Shown piece after piece: positions 9,815 to 63,453 of a DNA stretch of 64,000 nucleotides. Each line of letters opens with the position of its first letter. Within the stretch, counting starts at the first letter, position 1. The notes under the pieces are model-generated. The model was not told where the DNA came from and ran no database searches. It worked only from the letters and a program-made list of their open reading frames with translations. Both the position numbers and the translations under genes were made by a program. Source of the DNA: Escherichia coli (GTDB lineage Bacteria > Pseudomonadota > Gammaproteobacteria > Enterobacterales > Enterobacteriaceae); NCBI RefSeq assembly GCF_050920415.1, contig NZ_CP169309.1; one strand, written 5' to 3'.

Positions 9815-9975
9815 ACGCTGAAACGGGAAAGCCCCTCCCGAGGAAGGGGCCTTAAATAAGGAAAGGGTCATGATGAAGTGGATCATCATCGTGGTGCTCT
9901 TAGTCGTTAGCTACCCAGCTTACTAAGACTACCAGGGCGGGGGAAACCCCGCTCTACCCTCACTCCTGAAAGTAT
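9815..9975 (-). ncRNA. Sib-family antisense sRNA (antitoxin), copy 1; boundaries approximate
   Basis: Inferred from the known Sib/Ibs geometry (sRNA fully overlaps the toxin ORF on the opposite strand); minus-strand hairpin GCCCCUUCC-UCG-GGAGGGGC followed by a U-containing tract near 9820-9845 could be its terminator. Confidence 0.4.
9870..9926 (+). CDS. Ibs-family type I toxin, copy 1 (18 aa: MMKWIIIVVLLVVSYPAY)
   Basis: ATG ATG AAG ... TAC TAA read directly; preceded by aaggaaagg Shine-Dalgarno; not in ORF track (below size cutoff). Resembles E. coli IbsA/IbsB peptides. Confidence 0.6.
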   Translation: MMKWIIIVVLLVVSYPAY

Positions 9976-10142
9976 GCCTTCACAATCAGATTGTCAATCC
10001 GCAGGCTTTGTAGTCTGCGATCCTGCCAGCAAATATTCTTTGCGAGACGTTACGCAATAATCACAGATGAAACTATTTTATCTACGCGTTAGCGATAGAC
10101 TGCATTCAGGGCAAAAGGAGGTAGGCCGCCGATTTCAGCGGG

Positions 10143-10303
10143 ACGCTGAAACGGGAAAGCCCCTCCCGAGGAAGGGGCCTTAAATAAGGAAAGGGTCATG
10201 ATGAAGATACTCATCATCGTGGTGCTCTTAGTCATTAGCTTACCGGCTTACTAAGACTACCAGGGCGGGGGAAACCCCGCTCTACCCTCACTCCTGAAAG
10301 TAT
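10143..10303 (-). ncRNA. Sib-family antisense sRNA, copy 2; boundaries approximate
   Basis: By position relative to Ibs copy 2, same repeat unit. Confidence 0.4.
10198..10254 (+). CDS. Ibs-family type I toxin, copy 2 (18 aa: MMKILIIVVLLVISLPAY)
   Basis: Same architecture as copy 1, 328 bp downstream. Confidence 0.6.
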   Translation: MMKILIIVVLLVISLPAY

Positions 10304-10470
10304 GCCTTCACAATCAGATTGTCAATCCGCAGGCTTTGTAGTCTGCGATCCTGCCAGCAAATATTCTTTGCGAGACGTTACGCAATAATCACATGTGAAA
10401 CTATTTTATCTGCAAGTTAGCGATAGACTGCTTGCATGGCGAAAGGAGGTAGGCCGCCGATTTCAGCGGG

Positions 10471-10631
10471 ACGCTGAAACGGGAAAGCCCCTCCCGAGGA
10501 AGGGGCCTTAAATAAGGAAAGGGTCATGATGAAGCTACTCATCATCGTGGTGCTCTTAGTTATTAGCTGGCCAGCTTACTAAGACTACCAGGGCGGGGGA
10601 AACCCCGCTCTACCCTCACTCCTGAAGTTAT
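10471..10631 (-). ncRNA. Sib-family antisense sRNA, copy 3; boundaries approximate
   Basis: By position relative to Ibs copy 3; the 5' flank of this unit is divergent so the sRNA may be altered. Confidence 0.3.
10526..10582 (+). CDS. Ibs-family type I toxin, copy 3 (18 aa: MMKLLIIVVLLVISWPAY)
   Basis: Same architecture; the distal part of this repeat unit diverges after the ORF. Confidence 0.55.
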   Translation: MMKLLIIVVLLVISWPAY

Positions 10632-10799
10632 GTTACTCCACCCTTATTGTCAATCTGTAAGTCCACGTTCTTGCGGGGCGAATAGCAAAACCCTCTGCGC
10701 TTATGGGCCGAATTCTGAAAGTTGCTTTGCCTGCTCTTATTTCATTATTGCAGTCGGTATGATACCGGACCTCAATAATTCTCTAAGAAAGGATTTCTT

Positions 10800-22318: not shown

Positions 22319-24172
22319 ATGAGACGATTTCTGACGACGCTGATGATACTCCTGGTCGTGCTGGTGGCCGGGTTATCTGCGTTAGTGTTGCTGGTGAATC
22401 CGAATGATTTCCGCGACTATATGGTCAAGCAAGTTGCTGCACGTAGCGGTTATCAATTGCAGCTCGACGGGCCACTGCGTTGGCACGTCTGGCCGCAACT
22501 TAGTATCCTCTCCGGGCGAATGTCTCTCACTGCCCAGGGCGCGAGCCAGCCACTGGTTCGCGCAGACAACATGCGTCTGGACGTGGCGCTTTTACCACTG
22601 CTGAGTCATCAACTGAGCGTTAAGCAGGTGATGCTAAAAGGGGCAGTGATCCAACTGACGCCGCAGACGGAAGCGGTACGCAGCGAAGATGCCCCGGTTG
22701 CACCGCGCGACAATACCTTGCCGGATCTGTCAGACGATCGCGGATGGTCGTTTGATATATCCAGTCTTAAGGTGGCGGACAGCGTGCTGGTGTTCCAGCA
22801 TGAAGATGACGAGCAGGTGACAATCCGTAATATCCGCCTGCAAATGGAACAAGATCCCCAACATCGTGGTTCATTTGAGTTCTCCGGGCGGGTTAATCGC
22901 GATCAGCGCGATCTCACGATATCCCTTAACGGTACGGTAGATGCTTCTGATTATCCGCATGATTTAACGGCGGCTATTGAACAAATTAACTGGCAGTTGC
23001 AGGGTGCCGATTTACCAAAACAAGGTATTCAGGGGCAGGGGAGTTTCCAGGCCCAGTGGCAGGAGTCACATAAACGCCTTTCATTTAACCAAATTAGTTT
23101 GACCGCCAATGACAGTACGCTGAGCGGGCAAGCACAGGTCACGCTGACAGAGAAACCGGAATGGCAGCTGAGACTGCAATTCCCGCAACTGAATCTTGAC
23201 AACCTCATCCCGCTTAAAGAAACAGCGAACGGTGAAAACGGTGCCGCGCAGCAGGGGCAGAGCCAATCCACGTTGCCGCGCCCGGTCATTTCTTCGCGTA
23301 TTGATGAACCGGCCTATCAGGGATTGCAAGGCTTTACGGCTGATATTTTGTTGCAGGCCAGTAACGTGCGCTGGCGCGGAATGAATTTTACAGACGTTGC
23401 CACGCAAATGACCAACAAGTCGGGTTTGCTGGAAATTACTCAACTGCAGGGCAAGCTTAACGGTGGACAGGTTTCGCTGCCGGGCACGCTGGACGCGACA
23501 TCAATAAGTCCGCGGATAATCTTCCAGCCACGGCTGGAAAACGTTGAGATTGGCACCATTCTGAAGGCGTTTAACTATCCGATTTCGTTGACCGGAAAGA
23601 TGTCACTTGCGGGTGATTTCTCCGGTGCTGACATAGATGCCGACGCATTCCGCAACAACTGGCAAGGGCAGGCGCATGTTGAGATGACCGACACACGCAT
23701 GGAAGGGATGAACTTCCAGCAGATGATTCAGCAAGCGGTAGAGCGTAATGGTGGTGATGTGAAGGCCGCTGAAAACTTCGATAACGTGACGCGTCTTGAC
23801 CGCTTTACCACCGATTTGACGTTGAAGGATGGCGTCGTGACGTTAAACGACATGCAAGGTCAATCGCCTGTGCTGGCGCTGACAGGGGAAGGCATGTTGA
23901 ATTTGGCAGATCAAACCTGCGACACCCAGTTTGATATTCGGGTCGTGGGTGGCTGGAACGGGGAAAGCAAACTGATTGATTTCCTCAAAGAAACGCCAGT
24001 ACCGCTGCGGGTTTATGGCAACTGGCAGCAACTTAATTACAGCCTGCAAGTGGACCAGCTGCTACGCAAACATCTACAGGACGAAGCGAAACGTCGCCTG
24101 AATGACTGGGCCGAGCGGAATAAAGATTCCCGCAATGGCAAAGATGTGAAGAAGTTGCTGGAGAAGATGTAA
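22319..24172 (+). CDS. asmA: Outer-membrane assembly protein AsmA
   Basis: 617 aa with an N-terminal anchor helix (MRRFLTTLMILLVVLVAGLSALVLLV); conserved position. Confidence 0.85.
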   Translation: MRRFLTTLMILLVVLVAGLSALVLLVNPNDFRDYMVKQVAARSGYQLQLDGPLRWHVWPQLSILSGRMSLTAQGASQPLVRADNMRLDVALLPLLSHQLSVKQVMLKGAVIQLTPQTEAVRSEDAPVAPRDNTLPDLSDDRGWSFDISSLKVADSVLVFQHEDDEQVTIRNIRLQMEQDPQHRGSFEFSGRVNRDQRDLTISLNGTVDASDYPHDLTAAIEQINWQLQGADLPKQGIQGQGSFQAQWQESHKRLSFNQISLTANDSTLSGQAQVTLTEKPEWQLRLQFPQLNLDNLIPLKETANGENGAAQQGQSQSTLPRPVISSRIDEPAYQGLQGFTADILLQASNVRWRGMNFTDVATQMTNKSGLLEITQLQGKLNGGQVSLPGTLDATSISPRIIFQPRLENVEIGTILKAFNYPISLTGKMSLAGDFSGADIDADAFRNNWQGQAHVEMTDTRMEGMNFQQMIQQAVERNGGDVKAAENFDNVTRLDRFTTDLTLKDGVVTLNDMQGQSPVLALTGEGMLNLADQTCDTQFDIRVVGGWNGESKLIDFLKETPVPLRVYGNWQQLNYSLQVDQLLRKHLQDEAKRRLNDWAERNKDSRNGKDVKKLLEKM

Positions 24173-24193
24173 GTCATCCAGATGACATATGCT

Positions 24194-24231
24194 GTAGGCC
24201 TGATAAGACGCGTAAGCGTCGCATCAGGCAA
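24194..24231. repeat. REP element (left flank of asmA-yegH intergenic insert)
   Basis: aggcctgataagacgcgtaagcgtcgcatcaggca. Confidence 0.7.
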
Positions 24232-24588
24232 TCACGTAGATTACTTTCAGCAAAGATGAATCATCTGTATAAGTAAGATACTTCAGCGAGGGTGTTGGTC
24301 CGGCTGTAAATCGCCGAATCGTTTCCTGTAGGCCGGGGCAGCCCACATGGATGTGGGCTGAGGGCGCGTTTTACAGGGATGTTACCTCGCGCCCGTACCC
24401 GATAGCCGAAAGGAATAAGATGAGGGGACCGCGCTAGCGGCGATTTACCGCCGGGAGCCCGGGTTGCCAGGGTGGTGGCGATTGAGCCACCCTGGCACGT
24501 TCACCGGCTTGAGCGTTCCAAAGTAGCGAGGAACATAAAGTGAACGGAACAGCCTCTAATGTCACATACTCTCCCGGTTGAATGAAAC
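24232..24588. other. GC-rich structured intergenic segment of unknown nature, bounded by inverted REPs
   Basis: Perfect palindromes cccacatggatgtggg and ccagggtgg...ccaccctgg; no convincing ORF. Confidence 0.4.
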
Positions 24589-24625
24589 GCCTGATGCGAC
24601 GCTTACGCGTCTTATCAGGCCTACA
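24589..24625. repeat. REP element (right flank, inverted orientation)
   Basis: gcctgatgcgacgcttacgcgtcttatcaggcctaca, the inverse of the 24194 REP. Confidence 0.7.
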
Positions 24626-24630
24626 TGCCA

Positions 24631-26214
24631 TCACACCTCATACTCCATTTCGCCATCCTTATGCAGCGGAATAATCTGCACCTTCTGCACGCGATGGCTT
24701 TCCACCTGCAATGTTTTAAGCAAATAATCCCCCACCTGAACTTCTTCGCCAGGTTTTGGAATGCGCTGTAAATATTCCATCAGCAGCCCGGCAATGGTGT
24801 GATATTCACGTTTCTCATCCAGCGGCAGTGGTACATATTGCACCAGATCTTCCAGCGGCATATGACCATTCGCTGTCCAGGAACCGTCGGCATTTTTCTG
24901 AATATCATGACGGGCATCGATCTCTTCCACTTCGTTTGGCAAGTTACCAGCAATGGTTTCAGTGACGTCACTTAATGTCACAATCCCTTCCACCGAGCCA
25001 AACTCATCCACCACAAAAGCAAAGTGCGTGCGGGCATTACGGAACTGCTCCAGGGCAGGTAACAACGGTAAAGTTTCCGGGAACACCAGCGGCTGGCGAA
25101 TCAACACCCGCAGGTTGAGCGGTTCGCCACGCAGTGACTGTTGTAGCAGGTCGATAACGTGAACAACACCGAGCAAATCTTCTGCGTCATCGCCGTCGGT
25201 AACGACCAGACGCGTATGCTGATTTCGCTCCAGCAACTGGCGGATTTCTTCTTCCGGCGCGTTGAGATCGATATGCTCAATATCGTGGCGCGACGTCATA
25301 ATGCTGCTGACGGTACGCTGGTTAAGATTAAGTACCCGCTCAATCATCCGCCGTTCCTGCGGATTAAAGATCTGCTGGTTACCATAATCCACCAGCATGG
25401 ACGCGGTTTCGGCATCCAGTTCCGCATCTTCTTTTTGCCCGCTTAACAAGCGCATTACCGCTTCGGTAGTTCGCTGGCGCAGCGTCTGGTTAGCGGAGAG
25501 AAAACGTCGCCGGTTAAAGATGGCAAGTTGATTGAGCGCCTCGATCATTACCGAGAAACCAATGGCAGCATACAGATAGCCTTTCGGAATGACGAAGCCG
25601 AAACCTTCCGCCACCAGGCTAAAGCCAATCATCAACAGGAAACTTAGGCAGAGTATGACGATGGTCGGGTGACTGTTAACAAATTGCGTTAACGGCTTGC
25701 TGGCCATCAGCATCAGGCTGATCGCGATAACCACGGCGGCCATCATGACCAGTAAATGGTCGACCATCCCGACGGCAGTAATCACCGAGTCAAGTGAGAA
25801 GATGGCGTCCAGCACCACAATTTGCGTCACCACGCCCCAGAACTTCGCACCTTTGCGTTGCGTGGGGTTATTGCTGTCTTTCCCCTCCAGCCGTTCGTTC
25901 AACTCCATCGTGGCTTTGAACAGCAGGAAGAAACCACCAAACAGCATGATTAAGTCGCGGGCGCTAAAGGTAAACGAGCGGAAGCTGAACAGTGGTTGGG
26001 TCAGGGTGACCAGCCAGGAGATTGACGCCAGCAGTAACAGGCGCATTAACATTGCCAGCAGCAGCCCGGTAATCCGTGCGCGGTCGCGCTGCTTCGGCGG
26101 TAGTTTTTCGGCGAGGATGGCAATAAAGACCAGGTTATCAATGCCGAGGACCAGTTCGATCACAATCAGCGTGATTAACCCGGCCCAGATAGACGGATCG
26201 GCAATCCATTCCAT
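24631..26214 (-). CDS. yegH: TerC-family membrane protein with CBS and CorC/HlyC-type transporter-associated domains (YegH)
   Basis: ORF track frame is 549 aa; the likely start is complement(26212..26214) giving [18 protein letters not shown]... (~527 aa). Confidence 0.85.
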
Positions 26215-26655: not shown

Positions 26656-26694
26656 CAGTGTATTGGTAGCTAAAAAGCCAGGGGCGGTAGCGTG
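26656..26694 (+). promoter_or_regulatory. JUMPstart element with ops (GGCGGTAGCGTG) in the wza leader; RfaH recruitment site
   Basis: cagtgtattggtagctaaaaagccaggggcggtagcgtg; ops at 26683..26694. Confidence 0.75.
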
Positions 26695-41237: not shown

Positions 41238-41338
41238 TAGTTGAATAATCAACCGGAATAAATCTCCGGTAAATAATGACAAAAACAAAATTGGCCGTTT
41301 CGGTCAGGGCCAACTATTGCCTGAAAAAGGGTAACGAT

Positions 41339-50939: not shown

Positions 50940-50978
50940 CAGTACTCTGGTAGCTGTAAAGCCAGGGGCGGTAGCGTG
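50940..50978 (+). promoter_or_regulatory. JUMPstart element with ops (GGCGGTAGCGTG) upstream of the O-antigen operon
   Basis: cagtactctggtagctgtaaagccaggggcggtagcgtg; ops at 50967..50978; ~75 bp upstream of rmlB. Confidence 0.75.
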
Positions 50979-51052: not shown

Positions 51053-52138
51053 GTGAAGATACTTGTTACTGGTGGCGCAGGATTTATTGGTTCTGCTGTT
51101 GTTCGTCACATAATAAATAATACGCAAGATAGTGTTGTTAATGTCGATAAATTAACCTACGCCGGAAATCTGGAATCGCTCGCTGAAATTTCTGATTCTG
51201 AACGTTATTCATTTGAGCATGCAGATATCTGTGATGCCGCAGCGATGGCTCGTATTTTTTCACAACACCAGCCAGATGCGGTAATGCACCTGGCGGCTGA
51301 GAGCCACGTTGACCGCTCAATAACTGGTCCGGCGGCATTCATTGAAACTAATATTGTAGGTACTTACGTACTTTTAGAAGCAGCGCGCAATTATTGGTCT
51401 GGTCTGGATGATGAAAAGAAAAAAAACTTTCGCTTTCATCATATTTCTACTGATGAAGTGTATGGTGACTTACCCCATCCGGATGAAGTAAATAGCAATG
51501 AAACATTGCCGTTATTTACGGAAACGACAGCATACGCGCCAAGTAGTCCATATTCTGCTTCTAAAGCGTCAAGCGATCATTTGGTTCGCGCATGGAAACG
51601 TACTTATGGTTTACCGACAATCGTGACTAATTGCTCGAACAACTATGGCCCTTATCATTTCCCGGAAAAGCTTATTCCACTGGTTATTCTTAATGCACTG
51701 GAAGGTAAGGCATTACCTATTTATGGCAAAGGAGATCAAATTCGCGACTGGTTGTATGTAGAGGATCATGCTCGTGCGCTATATACCGTAGTTACTGAAG
51801 GTAAAGCGGGTGAAACCTATAACATTGGCGGACACAACGAAAAGAAAAACATCGATGTTGTGCTGACTATTTGTGATTTGTTGGATGAGATAGTCCCGAA
51901 AGAGAAATCTTATCGTGAGCAAATTACTTATGTTGCTGATCGCCCAGGACACGATCGCCGTTATGCGATTGATGCTGAGAAGATTAGTCGCGAATTGGGT
52001 TGGAAACCACAGGAAACGTTTGAGAGCGGGATTCGGAAGACAGTAGAATGGTACCTGTCCAATACAAAATGGGTTGATAATGTGAAAAGTGGCGCCTATC
52101 AATCGTGGATTGAACAAAACTATGAGGGACGCCAGTAA
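51053..52138 (+). CDS. rmlB: dTDP-glucose 4,6-dehydratase
   Basis: 361 aa; [35 protein letters not shown]. Confidence 0.93.
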
Positions 52139-53037
52139 TGAATATCCTCCTATTCGGCAAAACAGGGCAGGTAGGTTGGGAACTACAGCGTGCTCTGGCA
52201 CCTCTGGGTAATTTGATTGCTCTTGATGTTCACTCCACTGATTATTGTGGTGATTTTAGTAATCCTGAAGGTGTAGCTGAAACCGTAAGAAGCATTCGGC
52301 CTGATATTATTGTCAACGCAGCCGCTCACACCGCAGTTGACAAAGCAGAATCAGAACCGGAGTTTGCACAATTACTTAACGCGACAAGTGTCGAAGCGAT
52401 TGCGAAAGCAGCCAATGAAGTCGGCTCCTGGGTTATTCACTACTCTACTGACTACGTATTTCCGGGAACCGGTGAAATACCATGGCAGGAGGCGGATGCA
52501 ACCGCACCGCTAAATGTTTACGGTGAAACCAAGTTAGCCGGAGAAAAAGCATTACAAGAGCATTGTGTGAAGCACCTTATTTTCCGGACCAGCTGGGTCT
52601 ATGCAGGTAAAGGAAATAACTTCGCCAAAACGATGTTACGTCTGGCAAAAGAGCGTGAAGAATTGGCCGTTATTAACGATCAGTTTGGTGCGCCAACAGG
52701 TGCTGAGCTGCTGGCTGATTGTACAGCACATGCCATTCGTGTCGCACTGAATAAACCAGAAGTCGCAGGCTTGTACCATTTGGTAGCCAGTGGTACCACA
52801 ACCTGGCACGATTATGCTGCGCTGGTTTTTGAAGAGGCGCGCAAAGCAGGCATTCCCCTCGCACTCAACAAACTCAATGCGGTACCAACAACAGCCTATC
52901 CTACACCAGCTCGTCGTCCACATAACTCTCGCCTTAATACAGAAAAATTTCAGCAGAACTTTGCGCTTGTCTTGCCTGACTGGCAGGTTGGCGTGAAACG
53001 CATGCTCAACGAATTATTTACGACTACAGCAATTTAA
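52138..53037 (+). CDS. rmlD: dTDP-4-dehydrorhamnose reductase
   Basis: 299 aa; [20 protein letters not shown]. Confidence 0.92.
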   Translation: MNILLFGKTGQVGWELQRALAPLGNLIALDVHSTDYCGDFSNPEGVAETVRSIRPDIIVNAAAHTAVDKAESEPEFAQLLNATSVEAIAKAANEVGSWVIHYSTDYVFPGTGEIPWQEADATAPLNVYGETKLAGEKALQEHCVKHLIFRTSWVYAGKGNNFAKTMLRLAKEREELAVINDQFGAPTGAELLADCTAHAIRVALNKPEVAGLYHLVASGTTTWHDYAALVFEEARKAGIPLALNKLNAVPTTAYPTPARRPHNSRLNTEKFQQNFALVLPDWQVGVKRMLNELFTTTAI

Positions 53038-53094
53038 TAGTTTTTGCATCTTGTTCGTGATGGTGGAACAAGATGAATTAAAAGGAATGATGAA

Positions 53095-53970
53095 ATGAAA
53101 ACGCGTAAAGGTATTATTTTAGCAGGTGGTTCTGGTACTCGTCTTTATCCTGTGACTATGGCAGTCAGTAAACAGCTGTTACCTATTTATGATAAACCGA
53201 TGATCTATTACCCGCTCTCTACACTGATGTTGGCGGGTATTCGCGATATTCTAATTATAAGTACGCCACAGGATACTCCTCGTTTTCAACAACTGCTGGG
53301 TGACGGGAGTCAGTGGGGCCTTAATCTTCAGTACAAAGTGCAACCGAGCCCAGATGGTCTTGCGCAGGCATTTATCATCGGTAAAGAGTTTATCGGTAGT
53401 GATGATTGTGCTCTGGTTCTCGGTGATAATATCTTCTACGGTCACGATCTGCCGAAGTTAATGGATGCCGCTGTTAACAAAGAAAGTGGTGCAACGGTAT
53501 TTGCCTATCACGTTAATGATCCTGAACGCTATGGTGTCGTTGAGTTTGACAAAAACGGTACGGCAATTAGCCTGGAAGAAAAACCGCTACAGCCAAAAAG
53601 TAATTATGCGGTAACTGGGCTTTATTTCTATGATAACGACGTTGTAGAAATGGCAAAAAATCTTAAGCCATCTGCCCGAGGTGAACTGGAAATTACCGAT
53701 ATTAATCGTATCTATATGGAACAGGGGCGTTTGTCTGTCGCTATGATGGGGCGTGGTTATGCATGGCTGGATACAGGGACGCATCAAAGCCTTATTGAAG
53801 CAAGTAACTTCATTGCCACCATTGAAGAGCGTCAGGGATTAAAAGTATCTTGCCCGGAAGAGATTGCTTATCGTAAAGGGTTTATTGATGCTGAGCAGGT
53901 AAAAGTATTAGCCGAACCGCTTATCAAGAATCAATATGGTCAATATTTGCTGAAAATGATCAGCGAATAG
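53095..53970 (+). CDS. rmlA: Glucose-1-phosphate thymidylyltransferase
   Basis: 291 aa; [16 protein letters not shown]. Confidence 0.93.
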
Positions 53971-53984
53971 TATGTGGGAACTCA

Positions 53985-54398
53985 ATGATGGATATTAAAT
54001 TAATCTCTTTGCAAAAACATGGGGATGAGCGTGGTGCATTAATTGCTCTTGAAGAGCAACGAAATATACCTTTCGAAGTCAAAAGAATATATTACATACT
54101 CGAGACTCTTAAGGGAGTAAGACGCGGATTTCATGCGCACAAGGTTACTCGTCAGTTAGCTATTGTAGTCAAGGGAGCTTGTAAATTTCATCTGGATAAT
54201 GGTAAAGAAACAAAGCAGGTGGAACTTAATGATCCAACAATTGCGTTGCTGATAGAACCCTATATATGGCATGAAATGTATGATTTTAGTGATGATTGTG
54301 TGCTGCTTGTAATTGCGGATGATTTCTATAAAGAGTCTGATTATATACGCAATTATGATGATTTTATTAGAAGAGTAAATTCAATTGAGAATTCATAA
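53985..54398 (+). CDS. fdtA: dTDP-4-keto-6-deoxyglucose 3,4-isomerase (FdtA/QdtA-type, WxcM-like cupin)
   Basis: 137 aa; [13 protein letters not shown]...[11 protein letters not shown]...RGFHAHK is typical of FdtA-type isomerases. FdtA versus QdtA cannot be separated by eye. Confidence 0.7.
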
Positions 54399-54852
54399 GC
54401 TAAGTGACGTCCAGACAACATCAATTGGTGATGGAACAACTATCTGGCAGTTTGTTGTAATACTAAAAGGTGCTGTAATTGGTAATAATTGCAACATCTG
54501 TGCAAATACCTTGATTGAAAATAACGTTGTAATTGGTAACAATGTCACAGTCAAAAGCGGTGTGTATATTTGGGATGGCGTTAAAATAGAGGATAATGTT
54601 TTTATTGGTCCTTGTGTAGCATTTACAAATGATAAGTATCCTCGCTCTAAAGTCTATCCTGATGAATTTTTGCACACAATAATACGCAAAGGAGCATCAA
54701 TAGGTGCTAATGCAACCATCCTGCCAGGAATTGAAATTGGTGAAAAAGCAATCGTTGGTGCGGGGAGTGTCGTAACCAAAAATGTACCGCCATGCGCAAT
54801 AGTAGTAGGTAATCCAGCTCGATTTATTAAATGGGTAGAGGATAATGAATAA
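54385..54852 (+). CDS. fdtC: dTDP-3-amino-3,6-dideoxyhexose N-acetyltransferase (hexapeptide repeat, FdtC-like)
   Basis: 155 aa; hexapeptide repeats (IGNNCNI..., IGNNVTV..., IGANATI...); lies between the isomerase and the aminotransferase. Confidence 0.65.
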
Positions 54853-55951
54853 AATTGATTTTTTAGATCTTTTTGCAATTAACCAGCGACAGCACAAAGA
54901 ATTAGTCTCTGCGTTTAGTAGGGTGCTAGATTCTGGTTGGTATATCATGGGCGAAGAACTTGAGCAGTTCGAGAAAGAGTTCGCAGAATACTGTGGAGTT
55001 AAGTATTGCATTGGTGTAGCAAATGGCCTTGATGCGTTGATACTAGTATTGAGGGCATGGAAAGAACTCGGCTATCTAGAAGACGGTGACGAGGTATTAG
55101 TACCGGCAAATACATATATTGCTTCTATTCTTGCTATAACAGAGAACAAACTTGTTCCTGTTCTTGTTGAACCAGATATAGAAACTTATAATATTAATCC
55201 TGCTTTAATTGAAAATTACATTACGGAAAAAACTAAAGCAATATTACCGGTTCACTTATATGGTCTATTGTGCAATATGCCAGAAATTAGTGCAATCGCA
55301 AGAAAATATAATCTGTTGATTCTTGAAGATTGTGCACAAGCACATGGTGCAATACGTGATGGTCGCAAAGCTGGAGCTTGGGGGGATGCTGCAGGATTTA
55401 GTTTTTATCCAGGAAAAAACCTTGGAGCTTTGGGGGATGCGGGAGCTGTTACTACAAATAATGCAGAATTATCCTCAACTATAAAAGCTTTGCGAAATTA
55501 TGGGTCACATAAGAAATATGAAAATATTTATCAGGGATTGAATAGTCGATTGGATGAACTGCAAGCAGCCTTATTGCGTGTAAAAATCCATACATTACCG
55601 GAAGATACTGCGATTCGGCAAAGGATTGCTGAAAAATATATTCGTGAAATAAAAAACCCTGCGATTACGTTACCAGTGTACGAAGGCCAAGGTGCGCACG
55701 TTTGGCATTTATTTGTAGTAAGAATCGCTAATCGTGAAAAATTCCAGTCATACTTATCAGAGAAGGGTATCCAAACCTTAATTCACTATCCATTACCACC
55801 CCATAAGCAGCAAGCATATCAAAATATGTCTAGTCTTAGCCTTCCAATTACTGAGCAAATTCATGATGAAGTCATTTCTTTACCTATAAGTCCGGTAATG
55901 AGTGAAGATGATGTCAATTATGTAATCAAAGTGGTCAATGATTACAAGTAA
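54845..55951 (+). CDS. fdtB: dTDP-3-keto-6-deoxyhexose 3-aminotransferase (DegT/DnrJ/EryC1 family, FdtB-like)
   Basis: 368 aa; PLP-aminotransferase family features; gene context. Confidence 0.7.
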
Positions 55952-57213
55952 TGAAAAAATTTCTTCAGGTAACTATATTATCCGCTATCTATACATTCAT
56001 TAAAATGATTGCGGGTTTTATCATCGGTAAGGTAGTAGCAATTTATACAGGGCCATCAGGGGTAGCAATGCTTGGCCAAGTGCAAAGTTTAATCACAATA
56101 GTTGCAGGTACTACTTCTGCACCTGTAAGCACCGGTCTTGTTCGATATACTGCGGAAAATTGGCAAGAAGGACAGGAAGCATGCGCGCCATGGTGGCGCG
56201 CATGCTTAAGGGTTACTCTGTTTTTATTCTTGCTTATTATTCCCGTTGTTATTTTATTGTCGAAAAATATTAGCGAGTTACTTTTTAGCGATGGACAATA
56301 CACATGGTTAATCATTTTCGCATGTTGTATATTGCCATTCTCCATTTTAAATACATTGATCGCTTCAGTTTTAAATGGTCAACAATTCTATAAGCAATAT
56401 ATATTGGTTGGGATGTTTTCTGTATTCATTTCTACTATGTTTATGATTTTGTTGATTGTAGCTTATAATCTTAAAGGTGCATTGATTGCCACGGCTATAA
56501 ATAGTGCTATTGCTGGTCTTGTATTAGTTTTATTTTGTCTCAATAAATCTTGGTTTAGATTTAAATATTGGTGGGGTAAAACGGATAAAGACAAAATTAT
56601 AAAAATTATTCATTATACTCTGATGGCTTTGGTTTCTGTTATCTCCATGCCTACAGCATTGATGTGTATTAGAAAAATATTGATTGCTAAAACTGGTTGG
56701 GAGGATGCAGGGCAATGGCAGGCCGTATGGAAGATATCTGAGGTCTATCTTGGTGTTGTGACAATTGCTTTGTCAACATATTTCTTACCAAGATTGACAA
56801 TTATAAAAACAAGTTTCCTTATAAAAAAAGAGGTAAATAGTACTATATTATACATAGTATCTATTACTTCATTCATGGCGTTGAGTATCTATTTATTCCG
56901 CGATTTGGTAATAACAGTTTTATTTACTGAACAGTTTCGCTCAGCTCGTGAATTATTTTTGTTACAACTCGTAGGGGATGTAATAAAAATTGCTGGTTTT
57001 CTTTATGCATACCCTCTTCAAAGTCAGGGGCATACTAAACTATTCATCAGTTCAGAAGTGATTTTTTCTATGCTCTTTATCGTTACCACCTATATTTTTG
57101 TTGTAAATTATGGAGTACATGGTGCTAACATAAGTTATGTCATTACATATAGTTTATATTTTGTGTTTGCATTTGTGTTTACTAATTTTATTAATGTCAG
57201 AAGAATTAATTAA
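55951..57213 (+). CDS. wzx: O-antigen flippase Wzx
   Basis: 420 aa with ~12 predicted TM segments; AT-rich codon usage; position in the O-antigen cluster. Confidence 0.8.
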   Translation: MKKFLQVTILSAIYTFIKMIAGFIIGKVVAIYTGPSGVAMLGQVQSLITIVAGTTSAPVSTGLVRYTAENWQEGQEACAPWWRACLRVTLFLFLLIIPVVILLSKNISELLFSDGQYTWLIIFACCILPFSILNTLIASVLNGQQFYKQYILVGMFSVFISTMFMILLIVAYNLKGALIATAINSAIAGLVLVLFCLNKSWFRFKYWWGKTDKDKIIKIIHYTLMALVSVISMPTALMCIRKILIAKTGWEDAGQWQAVWKISEVYLGVVTIALSTYFLPRLTIIKTSFLIKKEVNSTILYIVSITSFMALSIYLFRDLVITVLFTEQFRSARELFLLQLVGDVIKIAGFLYAYPLQSQGHTKLFISSEVIFSMLFIVTTYIFVVNYGVHGANISYVITYSLYFVFAFVFTNFINVRRIN

Positions 57214-57222
57214 AAACAGAGG

Positions 57223-58278
57223 TTGAAATTGAAAATAATTATACCTGTCTTAGGATTTGGCAGGGCTGGTGGTGAAAGAGTTCTTTCTAAGCTGGCAACT
57301 GAATTGATGAATTATGGACATGATGTAAGTTTTGTTGTTCCAGATAATAGAACTAATCCATATTATGCTACCACAGCAAAAATCGTCACGAGTAAATCTA
57401 GTCAAAACCGTGTAAAAATATTGAGAATCATTAAAAATTACTATAATCTGTGGCGTAAATGCATAGAATTAAATCCTGATGCTGTAGTTGCTAGTTTTCA
57501 TTTGACTGCCTATCTTGTCGCATTATTACCAATCACCCGTCGTAAGAAATATTATTATATTCAGGCGTATGAAGTTAATTTTTTTGATAATATAATATGG
57601 AAATTAATAGCGGGTTTAACATATTATTTACCGCTTAAAAAAATACTAAATAGTCCTAATTTGCTTCCTCATAAACATGATGATTTTATAGGAGTAGTTC
57701 CTGCAGGAGTAGATTTAAACGTTTTCTATCCGAAACCATCAAATAGGTTATTAAATGGTCACACATCAATAGGGATTATTGGTAGAAAAGAGAAGCACAA
57801 AGGAACTAGCGAAATTATTTCAGTATTGTGTTCACTGGAAAATAAAGTTGGAATTATAATTAATATTGCGATCTATCTTGAAGAAGTTGATAAGGAGCGT
57901 TTAATTGCTGCCGGGTTTCAGGTTAATTTTTTTCCGATTACTTCTGATTTAGAATTGGCATCTTTTTATCGAAGCAATGACATCATGATTGCAGCTGGGT
58001 TAATTGAAGATGGCGCTTTCCATTATCCTTGTGCTGAATCAATGGCTTGTGGTTGTCTTGTTATTTCAAATTATGCGCCACTTACTGAAACTAACAGTGT
58101 ACTTAAATTAGTCAAGTTTGATGCTTGCAAACTTGGTAAAGCAATTAATCTTTGTCTCAATCTTGACCTAGAAGAAAAAAGCAAAGAAATCCAATCTAAT
58201 ATTTCTGTGTTGAATAAATATGACTGGAAAATTGTTGGTGAAACTTTCAATAGTTTATTGTTAGATGCAAATAAATAG
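57223..58278 (+). CDS. O-antigen glycosyltransferase (GT4-like)
   Basis: 351 aa; E-x7-E-like region EDGAFHYPCAESMACGCLVI. The track start is TTG at 57223; a second TTG at 57229 has better spacing from the agagg Shine-Dalgarno. Confidence 0.7.
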   Translation: MKLKIIIPVLGFGRAGGERVLSKLATELMNYGHDVSFVVPDNRTNPYYATTAKIVTSKSSQNRVKILRIIKNYYNLWRKCIELNPDAVVASFHLTAYLVALLPITRRKKYYYIQAYEVNFFDNIIWKLIAGLTYYLPLKKILNSPNLLPHKHDDFIGVVPAGVDLNVFYPKPSNRLLNGHTSIGIIGRKEKHKGTSEIISVLCSLENKVGIIINIAIYLEEVDKERLIAAGFQVNFFPITSDLELASFYRSNDIMIAAGLIEDGAFHYPCAESMACGCLVISNYAPLTETNSVLKLVKFDACKLGKAINLCLNLDLEEKSKEIQSNISVLNKYDWKIVGETFNSLLLDANK

Positions 58279-58298
58279 TATACGTTGATGGGGAAAAT

Positions 58299-58856
58299 AT
58301 GAATATTGTTAAAACTGATATTCCAGATCTGATCGTTCTTGAACCAAAAGTGTTTAGTGATGAACGCGGCTTTTTTATGGAGAGTTATAATCAGATTGAA
58401 TTTGAGAAGACAATAGGAAGGCACGTAAATTTTGTTCAGGATAATCATTCAAAATCTAGTAAAGGCGTACTACGTGGGTTACATTATCAATTAGCACCGT
58501 ATGCACAGGCTAAATTAGTTCGATGTGTTGTAGGTCAGGTATTTGATGTTGCTGTTGATCTTAGAAAAAATTCACCAACGTTCAAAAAATGGTTTGGAAT
58601 AACCCTTTCCGCAGAAAATAAACGACAATTATGGATACCTGAAGGATTTGCTCATGGTTTCTTGGTGACCAGTGATGAAGCTGAGTTCATTTATAAAACA
58701 ACGAACTACTATGCTCCTGGTCATCAGCAAGCAATTATTTACAATGATCCTATTTTAAACATCGATTGGCCTTTCTGCAGTAGTGCTCTGTCATTATCGC
58801 AAAAAGATCAAGAAGCAAAATTATTTTCAGAATTATTGGACAGTGAACTGTTCTAA
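58299..58856 (+). CDS. rmlC: dTDP-4-dehydrorhamnose 3,5-epimerase
   Basis: 185 aa; FSDERGFFMESY...LRGLHYQ...IPEGFAHGF; separated from rmlBDA by other genes. Confidence 0.9.
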   Translation: MNIVKTDIPDLIVLEPKVFSDERGFFMESYNQIEFEKTIGRHVNFVQDNHSKSSKGVLRGLHYQLAPYAQAKLVRCVVGQVFDVAVDLRKNSPTFKKWFGITLSAENKRQLWIPEGFAHGFLVTSDEAEFIYKTTNYYAPGHQQAIIYNDPILNIDWPFCSSALSLSQKDQEAKLFSELLDSELF

Positions 58857-58923
58857 TAAAGTGTGCCACCTTATCCGTCTGAAGGATAGGTGGTTGCTTA
58901 TATTTTTTGAGTATGTTTGTATA

Positions 58924-59886
58924 ATGACAGAAAATAGTCCGAAATATAAACACGATAAAAGCTTAATAAGTTTTATCTACTTATTTTTTATATTTACACT
59001 TATTGTAGGCTTCATTATCGCAAATACCCAGTTTTTGGGGCGAAGTAGAGACTATGATAATTATATACAGATCTTTTCTGGTGAAGAAGGGGAGGGGGTT
59101 CTTGAATTATTTTATCGCGGATTGATGTTAATAACGACCAGCTATGAAATTATCATTTTTATAATTTTAACATGTTCTTTTTTTATAAAGGCAAGGTTTC
59201 TTGCTAACTATTCGCGTAATTTTTCAGGCTTGACCTTATTCTTTGTTTATTATGCAAGCGTTGCACTTTGGGTTTTAGATTATACTCAATTCAGAAATGG
59301 TCTATGTATTTCCATTTTAATGTTTTCCGTATACTATTTATTTATAAATAAACCGACTTATTTTTATTTCTCGCTATTATGTGCAATTGCAACTCATTGG
59401 TCTGCTTTGCCTTTTTTGCTTTTATATCCTTTTGTCTATTCAAAAAAAATAAGACACCTTGGTTATTTTTGTTTCAGTATTCTTGTTTTGATTGCGATCT
59501 CAGGAGAAGGAAAAGAGATCATTTCTTTTATAAGAAATTTTGGAGTGGGACAAAAAATAGGAAACGAAGCTGGTGTAAATTTAATAAATTCATTATCCCT
59601 TACCGCTATTTTCTGGTTTGTTATTAGTTACATATCAAGCATTGGAAATGAAAGGAGAAATTTAAGACTTTTCTTTTGTTATGGTGTCATGCAATACGTG
59701 ACTTTTAGCCTTTTCTCTCTACCTGTTATGGCTTTCCGTATTTTGGAAATGTATTTTTTCCTTATGTTAACCATTGGGGTGTTTATTAAGCAAAAAAAGA
59801 ATTATTATTTTGTTTTTTGCAAAGTGTTAATTTTATTGTATCTAACATACTATTATCATATGGTTTTTGGAGTGATTAATGTGTAA
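58924..59886 (+). CDS. wzy: O-antigen polymerase Wzy (candidate)
   Basis: Polytopic membrane protein. The ORF track frame (58783) overlaps rmlC; the internal ATG at 58924 (MTENSPKYKHD...) avoids the overlap. Very AT-rich. Confidence 0.6.
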   Translation: MTENSPKYKHDKSLISFIYLFFIFTLIVGFIIANTQFLGRSRDYDNYIQIFSGEEGEGVLELFYRGLMLITTSYEIIIFIILTCSFFIKARFLANYSRNFSGLTLFFVYYASVALWVLDYTQFRNGLCISILMFSVYYLFINKPTYFYFSLLCAIATHWSALPFLLLYPFVYSKKIRHLGYFCFSILVLIAISGEGKEIISFIRNFGVGQKIGNEAGVNLINSLSLTAIFWFVISYISSIGNERRNLRLFFCYGVMQYVTFSLFSLPVMAFRILEMYFFLMLTIGVFIKQKKNYYFVFCKVLILLYLTYYYHMVFGVINV

Positions 59887-60766
59887 GGCTAAGGTGTTGG
59901 CTATAATTGTTACTTACAACCCGGAAATTATTCGTTTGACGGAATGTATTAACTCTTTAGCCCCACAAGTTGAGAGAATAATTCTTGTAGATAATGGCTC
60001 AAATAATAGTCATTTGATAAAAAATATCATTATTAATAACCTTGAAATTATTTTGCTTTCGGAAAACAAAGGCATTGCATTTGCTCAGAACCATTGTGTT
60101 AAGAAGGGTCTGGAAGCAAAAGAGTTTGACTATTTATTTTTCTCAGATCAGGATACTTGCTTTCCTAGCGATGTTATTGAAAAACTTAAGAGTACATTTA
60201 CGAAAAATAATAAAAAAGGTAAAAATGTTGCTTGTGCTTCTCCTTTTTTTAAAGACCATCGTTCAAATTATATGCATCCGTCAGTCAGCCTAAATATTTT
60301 TACGAGTACAAAAGTTATATGTAGTGAAGTAGACGATGATCTTTATCCCTCGCATGTTATTGCTTCTGGGATGTTAATGTCTCGCGAGGCATGGCGCGTC
60401 GTCGGACCATTTTGTGAAAAACTCTTTATAGACTGGGTTGATACAGAATGGTGTTGGCGTGCATTAGCTAATAGTATGATTATTGTTCAGACACCATCAG
60501 TCATCATTTCTCATGAACTTGGGTATGGGCAGAAAATTTTTGCTGGTCGATCTGTTACAATACATAATTCTTTCAGAAATTTTTATAAAATACGTAATGC
60601 AATATACTTAATGCTGCATTCAAATTATAGCTTCAAGTATCGTTATCATGCTTTTTTTCATGCGACAAAGAATATTGTATTTGAAATTTTATATTCGAAA
60701 GAAAAATTAAATTCACTGAAGGTTTGTTTTAAAGCTGTACGTGATGGTATGTTCAATAATTTTTAA
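59879..60766 (+). CDS. O-antigen glycosyltransferase (GT2; rhamnosyltransferase-like)
   Basis: 295 aa; IIVTYNPE...VDNGSNNS...FSDQDTCF (GT2 DxD-type motifs). Confidence 0.7.
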   Translation: MCKAKVLAIIVTYNPEIIRLTECINSLAPQVERIILVDNGSNNSHLIKNIIINNLEIILLSENKGIAFAQNHCVKKGLEAKEFDYLFFSDQDTCFPSDVIEKLKSTFTKNNKKGKNVACASPFFKDHRSNYMHPSVSLNIFTSTKVICSEVDDDLYPSHVIASGMLMSREAWRVVGPFCEKLFIDWVDTEWCWRALANSMIIVQTPSVIISHELGYGQKIFAGRSVTIHNSFRNFYKIRNAIYLMLHSNYSFKYRYHAFFHATKNIVFEILYSKEKLNSLKVCFKAVRDGMFNNF

Positions 60767-60796
60767 TACAAAAATAGTTAGGCTCAAGGTGTTTAA

Positions 60797-61873
60797 ATGG
60801 AAGAAAATAATATGAAGACGGTCGCTGTAGTTGGCACAGTGGGTGTTCCTGCTTGTTATGGTGGGTTTGAATCACTTGTTCAGAATCTAATTGATTATCA
60901 ATCTGATGGTATACAATATCAGATATTTTGCTCTTCAAAAAAATATAATAAAAAATTAAAAAATTATAAAAATGCAGAATTAATCTATTTGCCGATAAAT
61001 GCCAATGGCGTCTCTAGCATAATTTATGACATTATGTGTTTAATTATTTGTTTATTCAAAAGGCCAGATGTTGTTTTAATATTGGGGGTATCTGGTTGTT
61101 TATTTCTACCAATTTATAAACTATTTTCAAAATCAAAGATCATTGTCAACATCGATGGGCTTGAATGGCGTAGAAATAAATGGGGAACGTTTGCTAAGAA
61201 ATTTCTCAAAATATCTGAGGCGATATCTATTAGAATAGCTGATATTATCATTTCAGATAATCAAGCAATAGCTGATTATGTGGAAAATAAGTACAATAAA
61301 AAAAGCGTAGTTATAGCTTATGGGGGAGATCATGCTACTAATCTTAGTACACCGATAGACGATGATCAAAAAAAAGATGGTTATTATTTGGGGCTTTGTA
61401 GGATAGAGCCTGAGAATAATATAGAAATGATTTTGAATGCCTTCATTAATACAGATAAAAAAATTAAATTTATGGGTAATTGGGATAATAGCGAGTATGG
61501 GCGCCAGCTAAAAAAATATTATTCAAACTATCCAAATATCACACTACTAGAACCTAACTATAATATCGAAGAACTTTATAAACTAAGAAAAAATTGCCTT
61601 GCATACATTCATGGACACTCGGCTGGTGGAACAAACCCTTCTTTAGTTGAAGCGATGCATTTTAATATTCCTATTTTTGCTTTCGATTGTGACTTTAATC
61701 GTTACACAACTAATAATTTAGCTCATTACTTTAATGATTCTGAACAACTGACCTCATTAGCAGACAGTTTGTCTTTTGGAAATCTTAAATGTCAAGTATT
61801 AGATTTAAAAAAATATGCTGAAGATATGTATAACTGGAGGCATATAGCTGCTATGTATGAATCTATTTATTAA
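60797..61873 (+). CDS. O-antigen glycosyltransferase (GT4-like with N-terminal DUF1972-like region)
   Basis: 358 aa; E-x7-E-like NPSLVEAMHFNIPIFA. Confidence 0.7.
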   Translation: MEENNMKTVAVVGTVGVPACYGGFESLVQNLIDYQSDGIQYQIFCSSKKYNKKLKNYKNAELIYLPINANGVSSIIYDIMCLIICLFKRPDVVLILGVSGCLFLPIYKLFSKSKIIVNIDGLEWRRNKWGTFAKKFLKISEAISIRIADIIISDNQAIADYVENKYNKKSVVIAYGGDHATNLSTPIDDDQKKDGYYLGLCRIEPENNIEMILNAFINTDKKIKFMGNWDNSEYGRQLKKYYSNYPNITLLEPNYNIEELYKLRKNCLAYIHGHSAGGTNPSLVEAMHFNIPIFAFDCDFNRYTTNNLAHYFNDSEQLTSLADSLSFGNLKCQVLDLKKYAEDMYNWRHIAAMYESIY

Positions 61874-62054
61874 ACGCATTAACAATAATATAATTGACCT
61901 TATATAGCTATCAGAGTAAAAATGTAACGCTGATTTTTTTGTTAAATGATGCGCATTATATATTTAATGATTAAAATACTCTTGATCAAATAAAACTATT
62001 TAATTAATAATGTAAAATTTCATTATGCTATTTAAGATGTGAAAAATAACTTAA

Positions 62055-62125
62055 ATAAATGATGGGATATATTTATATTATCCCGGTTATAGACAAGCCC
62101 AGGGAAAGATCATCAGAAGTACACT
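62055..62125 (+). mobile_element. Fossil fragment homologous to the 5' end of the ISAs1/H-repeat transposase gene
   Basis: tgatgggatatatttatattatcccggttatagacaagcccagggaaag is ~83% identical to 62258..62306 of the downstream transposase gene. Confidence 0.55.
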
Positions 62126-62244
62126 TTTTGTACTAAATAATTCGCATTTTATGTTTAAAAATATGAGATATTCCTCATTACCTGAAGCTGTTTTTTATTG
62201 CTTATACATGATCAAATACTCCTTACATAATTAAGGAGAACAAA

Positions 62245-63381
62245 ATGGAACTTAAAAAATTGATGGAACATATTTCTATTATCCCCGATTACAGACAAGC
62301 CTGGAAAGTGGAACATAAATTATCGGATATTCTACTGTTGACTATTTGTGCCGTCATTTCTGGTGCAGAAGGCTGGGAAGATATAGAGGATTTTGGAGAA
62401 ACACATCTCGATTTTTTGAAGCAATATGGTGATTTTGAAAATGGTATTCCTGTTCACGATACCATTGCCAGAGTTGTATCCTGTATCAGTCCTGCAAAAT
62501 TTCACGAGTGCTTTATTAACTGGATGCGAGATTGCCATACTTCAGATGATAAAGACGTCATCGCAATTGATGGAAAAACACTCCGGCATTCTTATGACAA
62601 GAGTCGCCGTAAGGGAGCGATTCATGTCATTAGTGCGTTCTCAACAATGCACAGTCTGGTCATCGGACAGATCAAGACGGATGAGAAATCCAATGAGATT
62701 ACAGCCATCCCTGAACTTCTTAACATGTTGGATATTAAAGGGAAAATTATCACAACTGATGCGATGGGTTGCCAGAAAGATATTGCAGAGAAGATACAAA
62801 AACAGGGAGGTGATTATTTATTCGCTGTAAAAGGAAATCAGCGTCGGCTTAATAAAGCCTTTGAAGAAAAATTCCCACTGAAAGAATTAAATAATCCAGA
62901 GCATGACAGTTATGCAATTAGTGAAAAGAGTCACGGCAGAGAAGATATCCGTCTTCATATTGTTTGCGATGACCCTGATGAACTTATTGATTTCACGTTT
63001 GAATGGAAAGGACTGAAAAAATTATGCGTGGCAGTCTCCTTTCGCTCAATAATAGCAGAGCAAAAGAAAGAGCCCGAAATGATGGTCAGATATTATATCA
63101 GTTCTGCTGATTTAACCGCTGAGAAGTTTGCGACAGCGATTTGAAATCACTGGCACGTGGAGAATAAGCTGCACTGGCGTCTGGACGTGGTAATGAATGA
63201 AGACGATTGTAAAATAAGAAGAGGAAATGCAGCAGAATTATTTTCTGGGATACGGCACATTGCTATTAATATTTTGACGAATGATAAGGTATTCAAGACA
63301 GGATTAAGACGTAAGATGCGAAAAGCAGCCATGGACAGAAACTATCTCGCGTCAGTCCTTGCGGGGAGCGGGCTTTACTAG
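62245..63381 (+). pseudogene. ISAs1-family (H-repeat-associated) transposase gene interrupted by a single in-frame TGA at 63142..63144
   Basis: ORF track shows 62245..63144 and 63157..63381 in the same frame. Read through the stop they give ~378 codons, typical of H-repeat/ISAs1 transposases (...[29 protein letters not shown]...). Confidence 0.8.
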
Positions 63382-63453
63382 TCCTTCCTCGCTCAGTGAC
63401 AGAATATTGAATGAATAGCATTAAAATTATTAAATAATATGGTTTAATTCGAC

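Follow-up and report, generated by a model that had tools for sequence, protein, structure and literature searches.

We investigated the intergenic region between asmA and yegH in a stretch of Escherichia coli DNA of 64,000 nucleotides (nt; contig NZ_CP169309.1), hereafter called the window. The coding sequences of asmA (22319-24172, plus strand) and yegH, which encodes a TerC-family membrane protein (24631-26214, minus strand), are convergent in both the list of open reading frames (ORFs) and the identical RefSeq record, as an earlier note on this DNA had stated. The spacer between them (24173-24630) is 458 nt long. It contains an insert that is bracketed by two repetitive extragenic palindromic (REP) sequences and has a fold resembling the TwoAYGGAY RNA; this insert is very probably a member of the TRIP1 repeat family. 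No annotation lies beneath the element in any RefSeq record examined.

The asmA-proximal REP (24193-24229) and the yegH-proximal REP (24589-24625) form one inverted pair in the repeat search. The arms are 37 nt each, 100% complementary, and 359 nt apart, the right REP being an exact inverted copy of the left. The window contains three copies of a 32-nt REP core, while none is expected from 100 shuffles. Both arms gave sub-threshold matches to the Rfam model naRNA4, which was built on REP sequence; they were rejected as a small RNA (sRNA) call because the matches are the REPs only. The earlier note considered that the segment might be a composite bacterial interspersed mosaic element (BIME) or boxC-like repeat. 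The bracketing arms are indeed genuine, canonical REPs, and boxC-like units flank members of the family in other genera. However, a spacing of 359 nt is far beyond BIME and REPIN spacers, where tens of nt would be expected; the interior, which is not similar to REPs, is part of a longer family of 265 nt with a fold of its own; and the common allele of this junction holds the same interior with only one intact REP. A palindromic repeat cluster is scarcely credible as an explanation of the segment.

Between the REPs, an AT-rich leader (24230-24283) precedes a conserved core of about 273-276 nt (approximately 24284-24556), and a tail (24557-24588) connects the core to the right REP. The core has a GC content of 60.5% (0.59-0.65, compared with 0.43-0.53 in the flanks). 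The only ORFs over the segment are short ones of 40 and 66 residues on the minus strand (24227-24346 and 24437-24634). They were rejected as coding sequences, since they match no NCBIfam model and the family alignment shows indels that are not in triplets as well as compensatory changes. A short ORF after AAGGAG in the subtype B copies was also rejected; by eye, it is not conserved from copy to copy. When folded as RNA, the plus strand reaches −132.1 kcal/mol (z = −5.15 against shuffled controls) and the minus strand −119.3 kcal/mol (z = −5.38), so that the plus strand is 13 kcal/mol better. The bracketing REPs, the GC-rich and ORF-poor character of the segment, and its perfect hairpins were thus correctly described in the earlier note, with coordinates that are essentially right. 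Of its readings, an unannotated structured RNA or element is the best supported by the conserved fold and the compensatory changes described below.

The minimum free energy (MFE) structure of the plus strand consists of two multi-branched domains. The 5' domain (24307-24447) is the TwoAYGGAY-like module and is closed by the P1 stem, a 17-nt inverted repeat (24300-24316 and 24438-24454). It contains two adjacent hairpins. Hairpin 1 (24339-24360, helix 7) has a 9-bp stem and a UGGA loop within ACAUGGAUGU, with the GGA at 24349-24351; the perfect hairpin cccacatggatgtggg quoted in the earlier note lies here (24342-24357). Hairpin 2 (24362-24394, helices 8-9) has a GGGCGCG/CGCGCCC stem and the apical sequence UUACAGGGAUGUUAC, with the GGA at 24377-24379. 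In the 3' domain, the hairpin GCCAGGGUGGUGG...CCACCACCCUGGC (24465-24497, helix 12) includes the second quoted palindrome, ccagggtgg...ccaccctgg (24467-24475 and 24487-24495). It is followed by a long-range helix, CGUUCAC/GUGAACG, around a variable region (24498-24544, helix 13).

TRIP1 repeats, which Rudd listed first in 1999, have a length of 146-273 bp and 62-65% GC, and their predicted 'double-Y' RNA fold has an energy of −131 to −150 kcal/mol; their function is unknown (Li et al. 2024, PMC10888264). Five types, with a mutual identity of 84-94%, are located at aqpZ-ybjE, putP-ycdN, yohI-yohG, alx-sstT, and copA-ybaP (PMC10888264). The window core is collinear with TRIP1a of K-12 (L004, 1978-2243) over the full 266 bp, and its identity is 82.5% over 257 aligned columns or 74% over the alignment length. 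It is likewise a GC-rich unit with a two-domain, double-Y fold, as indicated by the alignments (A1 and A2), the consensus fold, and the MFE structure, and its GC content and folding energy are those given above. Because it is less similar to TRIP1a than the published types are to each other, the window copy is a divergent member of the family. It is also an intact one, which keeps the whole conserved secondary structure. The window locus is outside the five catalogued loci, and the names asmA and yegH are absent from PMC10888264; this is a property of the catalogue and not of the family. The earlier note could not assign the segment to a known gene or insertion sequence (IS). That statement must be corrected, because the segment matches a described repeat class, although its locus and subtype are outside the five catalogued types.

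The window copy represents a distinct subtype, here called A, in which GGTCCGGCTGT precedes the P1 stem. The same subtype is found beside proX and in most of the metagenome contigs that are not from E. coli. When the interior was used as a BLAST query against 5,426 complete E. coli genomes, all but one (5,425) gave related sequence, at 1-10 places in each (median 3). The E. coli paralogs are located at the published TRIP1a, b, and d loci (lysO-aqpZ, efeU-putP, and alx-sstT, respectively) and at proX-MFS (major facilitator superfamily). Like TRIP1, the element is GC-rich, intergenic, mostly located just downstream of a gene, present in several copies per genome at fixed loci, and prone to internal deletion, as is TRIP1b. 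The window copy differs from TRIP1 in its REP brackets and flipped orientation as well as in its sequence, and neither it nor the proX-side copy is at a published locus.

Conservation of the fold was examined using 27 non-redundant copies (alignment A2), which were obtained by clustering the 120 loci returned from a pattern scan of metagenome contigs. The consensus fold of about 265 nt contains 59 pairs according to RNAalifold, and 21 of these show compensatory double changes. The paired cells are compatible with pairing in 97.4% of cases, compared with 37-45% when the partners are slid by one to three columns. The covariation score is 0.254, whereas it does not exceed 0.061 in the slid controls, and none of 500 shuffles attained the observed values. 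Compensatory pairs account for four of eight in helix 7 (hairpin 1), six of nine in helix 12, and three of seven in helix 13, and helices 1-3 of P1 also covary. A typical stem varies between GCAGCCCACA...UGUGGGCUG and GCGACGCGCA...UGCGCGGCG. While the stems covary, both apical loops and several junction residues are invariant in the 27 copies. As a side observation, the 5' domains of the family members in L075 and L117 are interrupted by roughly 75 additional nt (AAAATTNCCGGGAGCAATTTTGGACAGCGCTTGCGCTGGCCCCGAAGGGG...).

The 5' domain was compared with the TwoAYGGAY RNA (RF01731). The Rfam model matched the window locally over the two hairpins (24333-24401) with 29.1 bits, and three other family copies were matched over the full length with 30.6, 31.5, and 36.6 bits. 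As with naRNA4 on the REPs, these Rfam matches are sub-threshold. For the reciprocal comparison, a covariance model, R1, was built from 25 TRIP1 5' domains only. A pattern scan of genome contigs (7N/9N spacing instead of 6N/8N) returned only three loci, all from Thalassotalea or Thalassomonas. Two of them (L009 and L010) are bona fide TwoAYGGAY RNAs above the Rfam threshold, with 55.1 and 49.5 bits. R1 matched L009, L010, and L008 over the full length with E values of 3.2e-5, 1.1e-4, and 3.5e-4 in 178 kb. The R1 scores were 154.5 bits for the window, 128.5 bits for Klebsiella, and only 15.8 bits for the remnant in K-12. No R1 match was obtained at the csrB locus, nor at the empty, toxin-antitoxin, and 291-nt alleles of the asmA-yegH junction. 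A divergent sequence of lower GC (0.49) on the minus strand of L054 (1586-1719) was matched by R1 over the full length with 47 bits and perhaps represents a link between the TRIP1 family and classical TwoAYGGAY RNAs.

The resemblance extends to individual residues. The window and the two bona fide TwoAYGGAY RNAs from Thalassotalea and Thalassomonas have in common CAUGGAUG, the GAGG linker, and, in hairpin 2, an identical stretch of 20 nt, UUUACA(G/U)GGAUGUUACCUC. Loop 1 of the window is AUGGAU and loop 2 is AGGGAU, a variant that is also present in seed members such as that of Psychromonas (ACAGGGACGU). The element has two adjacent hairpins with AYGGAY-type loops, a long closing stem, the same linker, reciprocal model recognition, and multiple copies per genome, as in Psychromonas. 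Differences from TwoAYGGAY are its GC-richness, the ARGGAY form of the second loop, scores below the gathering threshold, and a further conserved 3' domain (about 110 nt) without a counterpart in the Rfam model. The available part of the TwoAYGGAY alignment of Weinberg et al. 2010 contains no accession from E. coli or Salmonella.

TwoAYGGAY belongs to the same Rfam clan as CsrB (CL00106) and has been predicted to be a CsrA-binding sRNA (Gardner & Eldai 2015, PMC4333381). In the window, the two GGA motifs are 28 nt apart. Such a spacing would fit one CsrA dimer, and the consensus of CsrA ligands from systematic evolution of ligands by exponential enrichment is RUACARGGAUGU. Compared with this consensus, UACAGGGAUGU matches and ACAUGGAUGU nearly matches. 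The element thus resembles CsrB, CsrC, and the Rsm RNAs in having GGA in hairpin loops near the CsrA consensus and, through TwoAYGGAY, in its clan. It differs from them in having only two such hairpins, against 9-22, a rigid multi-helix fold, and no terminator of its own. The Rfam models of CsrB and CsrC gave no match on the element. Binding of CsrA to the element, which is predicted from motif resemblance, is possible but tentative. The term CsrA is absent from both papers on TRIP1 and its relatives (PMC10888264 and PMC11194060), neither of which is among the papers found to contain the word 'TwoAYGGAY'. The link between TRIP1, TwoAYGGAY, and CsrA is not made in these two papers.

TRIP1a and TRIP1c have been studied as 'Replication Risk Sequences' (RRS) (Pham et al. 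2024, PMC11194060). In MG1655, TRIP1a is located at 915016-915281 and TRIP1c at 2229122-2229394. When an RRS is on the lagging-strand template, the polymerase is blocked at a G-quadruplex (G4) tract, GGGGGTGCAGGGGGCGGCGG, and post-replication gaps are formed; RRS are conditionally essential and influence supercoiling (PMC11194060). In alignment A2, the stretch containing the G4 tract corresponds to the 5' arm of helix 12 (columns 194-226; 24465-24497 in the window; approximately 2150-2190 in L004), and the window hairpin is the counterpart of this stretch in TRIP1a. The RRS motif is absent from the entire window, and the G4Hunter(25) maximum is 1.04 in the window compared with 1.84 in TRIP1a and TRIP1d. 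The tract is lost in the asmA-yegH copy, the proX copy, and the Klebsiella-type subfamily. Because subtype A keeps the helix 12 hairpin and yet has lost the G-runs, the family conserves base pairing rather than the G-tract.

These data bear on a second explanation, in which the element is an RRS-like structural DNA device. The sense strand would fold on the lagging-strand template, block the polymerase, and leave a transient gap that alters local topology, and the RNA-like fold would simply be the single-stranded DNA fold of the G-rich sense strand unwound at the fork. The window copy shares the family and the overall fold with TRIP1a and TRIP1c, whose behavior as RRS has been demonstrated experimentally (PMC11194060). 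As DNA, its plus strand is very stable (−75.6 kcal/mol, z = −7.18), and DNA hairpins are equally compatible with the covariation. The orientation is also that of an active RRS: the sense strand of the window copy is the asmA strand, which is placed on the lagging-strand template by its positive cumulative GC skew and by synteny with K-12. The asmA gene of K-12 is located at 2.14 Mb in the left replichore and is encoded by the minus strand. The window copy differs from the RRS in that it is not at dif-symmetric positions and is dispensable across strains. Against the DNA device, the defining G4 tract is absent. In 1,425 genomes the element has the opposite orientation, which, judging from K-12 synteny and GC skew, would put the sense strand on the leading-strand template. 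Moreover, the G4 model accounts neither for the constancy of the AYGGAY loops, also present in the AT-rich TwoAYGGAY RNAs from distant bacteria, nor for the covariation of the C-rich partner arm with the 'G4' tract. We consider the DNA device somewhat unlikely and rank it second.

To describe the junction, 5,426 complete E. coli genomes were surveyed using the gene ends as a split query and allele-specific queries, and examples were read directly. The presence/absence polymorphism that the earlier note had raised was found, in the form of several structural alleles. The empty allele, as in CFT073, has a spacer of 67 nt with a single REP only. The common full-length allele (451 nt; 1,425 genomes; AVS0543 is a strain with the full copy) contains the full element co-oriented with yegH, an intact REP on the asmA side, and a degenerate REP remnant on the yegH side. 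The K-12-type allele (273 nt; L001, 1486-1758) is the most common one, with roughly 2,900 genomes as estimated from identity bands. It has a 178-nt deletion between CCCAAT and CCCGAT, which removes the leader and both GGA hairpins. In the 291-nt allele (L134, 201-491), the 5' domain is excised between the P1 arms. The O157:H7-type allele (L132, 3703-4321; O157:H7 F8798) has a larger spacer, in which a RelE/ParE-helix-turn-helix toxin-antitoxin pair replaces the element; it is among the 951 genomes whose gene ends are more than 650 nt apart. The window allele (458 nt; for example in CV839-06), with the element flipped to be co-oriented with asmA and with a second identical REP, occurs in 41 of the 5,426 genomes. 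The junction is a hotspot for alternative cargo, because O157:H7 carries a toxin-antitoxin pair where others carry a TRIP1-like element. The earlier suggestion of a strain-specific insertion is therefore only partly right: the element is old and widespread, being full-length in 1,425 genomes and truncated in most others, whereas its orientation and second REP in the window are rare.

The left REP has the same place and orientation in every allele read, including that of CFT073, except for the O157:H7 toxin-antitoxin allele. The right REP is missing from the common, K-12, and CFT073 alleles. The window core is 97.4% identical to the core of the common allele. However, the leader is only about 65% similar by eye, the tail is likewise diverged, and strong differences are seen in the 20 nt that follow the asmA stop codon. 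In a megablast comparison, homology with the common allele begins at query position 112. Directly 3' of the asmA stop codon (24173-24186), the window has a perfect small hairpin, GTCATC-CA-GATGAC, and the common allele has another hairpin-like sequence, GTTACCAGGTGACC, at this spot. The 300-nt gene flanks of the window are at least 99% identical in only 91 genomes. A recent inversion between the two REPs was rejected, because the yegH side of the common allele has only a degenerate REP remnant and the two alleles disagree in the leader, in the tail, and in the 20 nt next to asmA. From these differences and the rarity of the flanks, we infer that the window allele is an old, divergent, or possibly imported haplotype rather than a recent REP-to-REP flip.

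The TwoAYGGAY-like 5' domain has been lost at this junction by two independent deletions, the 178-nt deletion and the excision between the P1 arms. These events and a similar one in TRIP1b of K-12 suggest recurrent loss of the 5' domain by internal deletion. They also raise a third explanation, that the element is a decaying, functionless repeat, formerly mobile or spread by recombination, whose fold is inherited from functional paralogs; the copy at this locus would then matter only as a substrate for deletion and rearrangement. In most genomes the locus copy is absent, replaced by the toxin-antitoxin pair, or lacking its 5' domain through at least two independent deletions, and the copy number of the family varies from 1 to 10 per genome. 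TRIP1 copies are substrates for large inversions and mediate chromosomal rearrangements (PMC10888264). However, the copy in the window is intact and retains all helices and the two loops, and the identity of its core, compared with that of the leader and tail, resembles purifying selection on the core. No terminal inverted repeats of its own, target duplications, transposase, or phage matches accompany the element, while the matches in the plasmid collection are non-mobilizable. We regard a functionless relic as very unlikely and rank it third.

The same observations led us to reject an IS or a miniature inverted-repeat transposable element: the ORFs match no family, and the sole terminal inverted repeats are the host REPs, which are missing from other alleles. 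A search of the phage collection gave no match to the family. All matches in the plasmid collection are typed as non-mobilizable, and most are Mb-scale records that resemble chromosomes or chromosome fragments. The taxonomic breadth of the family rests on the metagenome contigs and on these Mb-scale, probably chromosomal records of Klebsiella and Citrobacter. One record of 5.37 Mb from Klebsiella pneumoniae, filed as a plasmid, has 12 places with family members, and further records of the collection place the family in K. aerogenes, K. variicola, and Citrobacter freundii. In six Klebsiella-like contigs that are not from E. coli (L053, L074, L109, L115, L122, and L128), inverted boxC-like units, CCCTCTCCC..GGGAGAGGG / GAGGGATCCCC, are on both sides of the element and mirror the REP brackets of the window. 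The bracketing of the element by different palindromic families across genera suggests that the end hairpins matter.

A flipped orientation is not restricted to the asmA-yegH junction. In contig L112 (4448-4737), aqpZ, the element, and lysO are arranged in this order on one strand, whereas at the E. coli aqpZ-lysO site (L004 and L037) the element runs antisense to the two genes; the flip has here a second example at an orthologous locus. Two further contigs contain hybrid elements on the minus strand, which join lysO to asmA in L059 (8728-9017) and yegH to aqpZ in L090 (183-472). They were rejected as true reciprocal recombinants of the window-locus copy and TRIP1a and are probably chimeric assemblies, because the yegH-aqpZ junction of L090 was found in none of the complete E. 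coli genomes at a coverage of at least 80%; the L059 junction was not searched.

We favor the explanation that the element is a structured RNA with a CsrA-type module and rank it first. The following scheme is a proposal. The element would be transcribed by read-through as part of the 3' region of asmA, because the terminator scan of 23900-24900 detected no terminator-like site, and hence none between the asmA stop codon and the element. The putative transcript would fold into the conserved two-domain structure, and the two GGA hairpins, with the loops ACAUGGAUGU and UACAGGGAUGU, might hold one CsrA dimer. Such binding could slightly titrate CsrA or make the fate of the host transcript dependent on CsrA. 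The RNA ends may be protected or delimited by the REP hairpins on either side. Since one REP is an exact inverted copy of the other, the two could also anneal into a 37-bp duplex that closes off the whole element.

Several observations are consistent with action as an RNA. Among 25 copies, 18 are located 44-419 nt downstream of a co-oriented gene. The invariant loops resemble protein-binding sites and are common to AT-rich relatives, which is a point for RNA. The better RNA fold of the plus strand, the lack of a terminator-like site after asmA, and the bracketing by different palindromic units in different genera point the same way. In the consensus fold, G-U exceeds A-C with 16 pairs against 10 and 33 cells against 21, but this is a weak test of the strand. 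An AT-rich, -10-like stretch appears upstream of many copies, which is only an impression.

A number of facts, on the other hand, weigh against the favored explanation. Because the strand test is weak, the covariation fits folding of single-stranded DNA equally well, and the DNA fold of the element is also highly significant. The only experiments on the family demonstrate an effect at the DNA level, namely polymerase blockage, post-replication gaps, and supercoiling changes (PMC11194060). The scan found neither a sigma-70-like promoter nor an intrinsic terminator in the intergenic region. With 29-37 bits, the RF01731 matches do not reach the gathering score of 43 bits. With two GGA sites each, such RNAs would be poor sponges in comparison with CsrB. 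In the available part of the gene-level tables from CsrA crosslinking and immunoprecipitation sequencing (PMC5694010 supplement), ybjE (lysO) and dusC, the neighbors of TRIP1a and TRIP1c, are non-targets, a comparison that is weak since it is gene-based and limited to this part. Finally, the junction copy is dispensable, since in most E. coli it is either absent or truncated without both GGA hairpins. On balance, whether the element acts as an RNA is evenly poised, and the same applies to the complete explanation, in which TRIP1-family identity is combined with action as a structured RNA.

A wider proposal can be formulated for the family, that TRIP1 and RRS encode a structured RNA of some 265 nt with a CsrA-docking TwoAYGGAY module, that the G4 is incidental, and that the RRS phenotype is partly mediated by RNA or CsrA. 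At present, this appears distinctly unlikely.

Other features of the window were observed outside the asmA-yegH region. Three tandem SIB_RNA (Sib antitoxin) genes are located on the minus strand at 9855-9997, 10183-10325, and 10511-10653, with about 139 bits each. K-12 presumably has two Sib genes at this locus, and the window may contain an extra Ibs/Sib repeat unit. Two JUMPstart elements are present on the plus strand, one just upstream of wza and the other further on (26656-26694 and 50940-50978), together with an algC RNA motif (41285-41334, plus strand); JUMPstart and the algC motif are expected for the colanic-acid and O-antigen region. The region 52000-64000 has a GC content of 0.33-0.37 with a strong positive GC skew and is probably the O-antigen gene cluster.

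On its own, the locus offers a modest curiosity: an allele of a polymorphic junction that is rare, flipped, and REP-bracketed. The link at the family level between TRIP1/RRS, TwoAYGGAY, and the Csr clan matters more. For 25 years these repeats received no attention, until they were reported as conditionally essential sequences that shape chromosome topology through a G-quadruplex. The G4-less copy in the window and the covariation of the 27 copies indicate that what selection preserves is the whole fold with its two invariant GGA loops. Through these features, TRIP1/RRS is tied to an orphan RNA motif from the Csr/Rsm clan, TwoAYGGAY. A contrast between the loops and the G4 would tell whether RRS act as DNA, RNA, or both, and the link would give TwoAYGGAY its first genetically tractable host.

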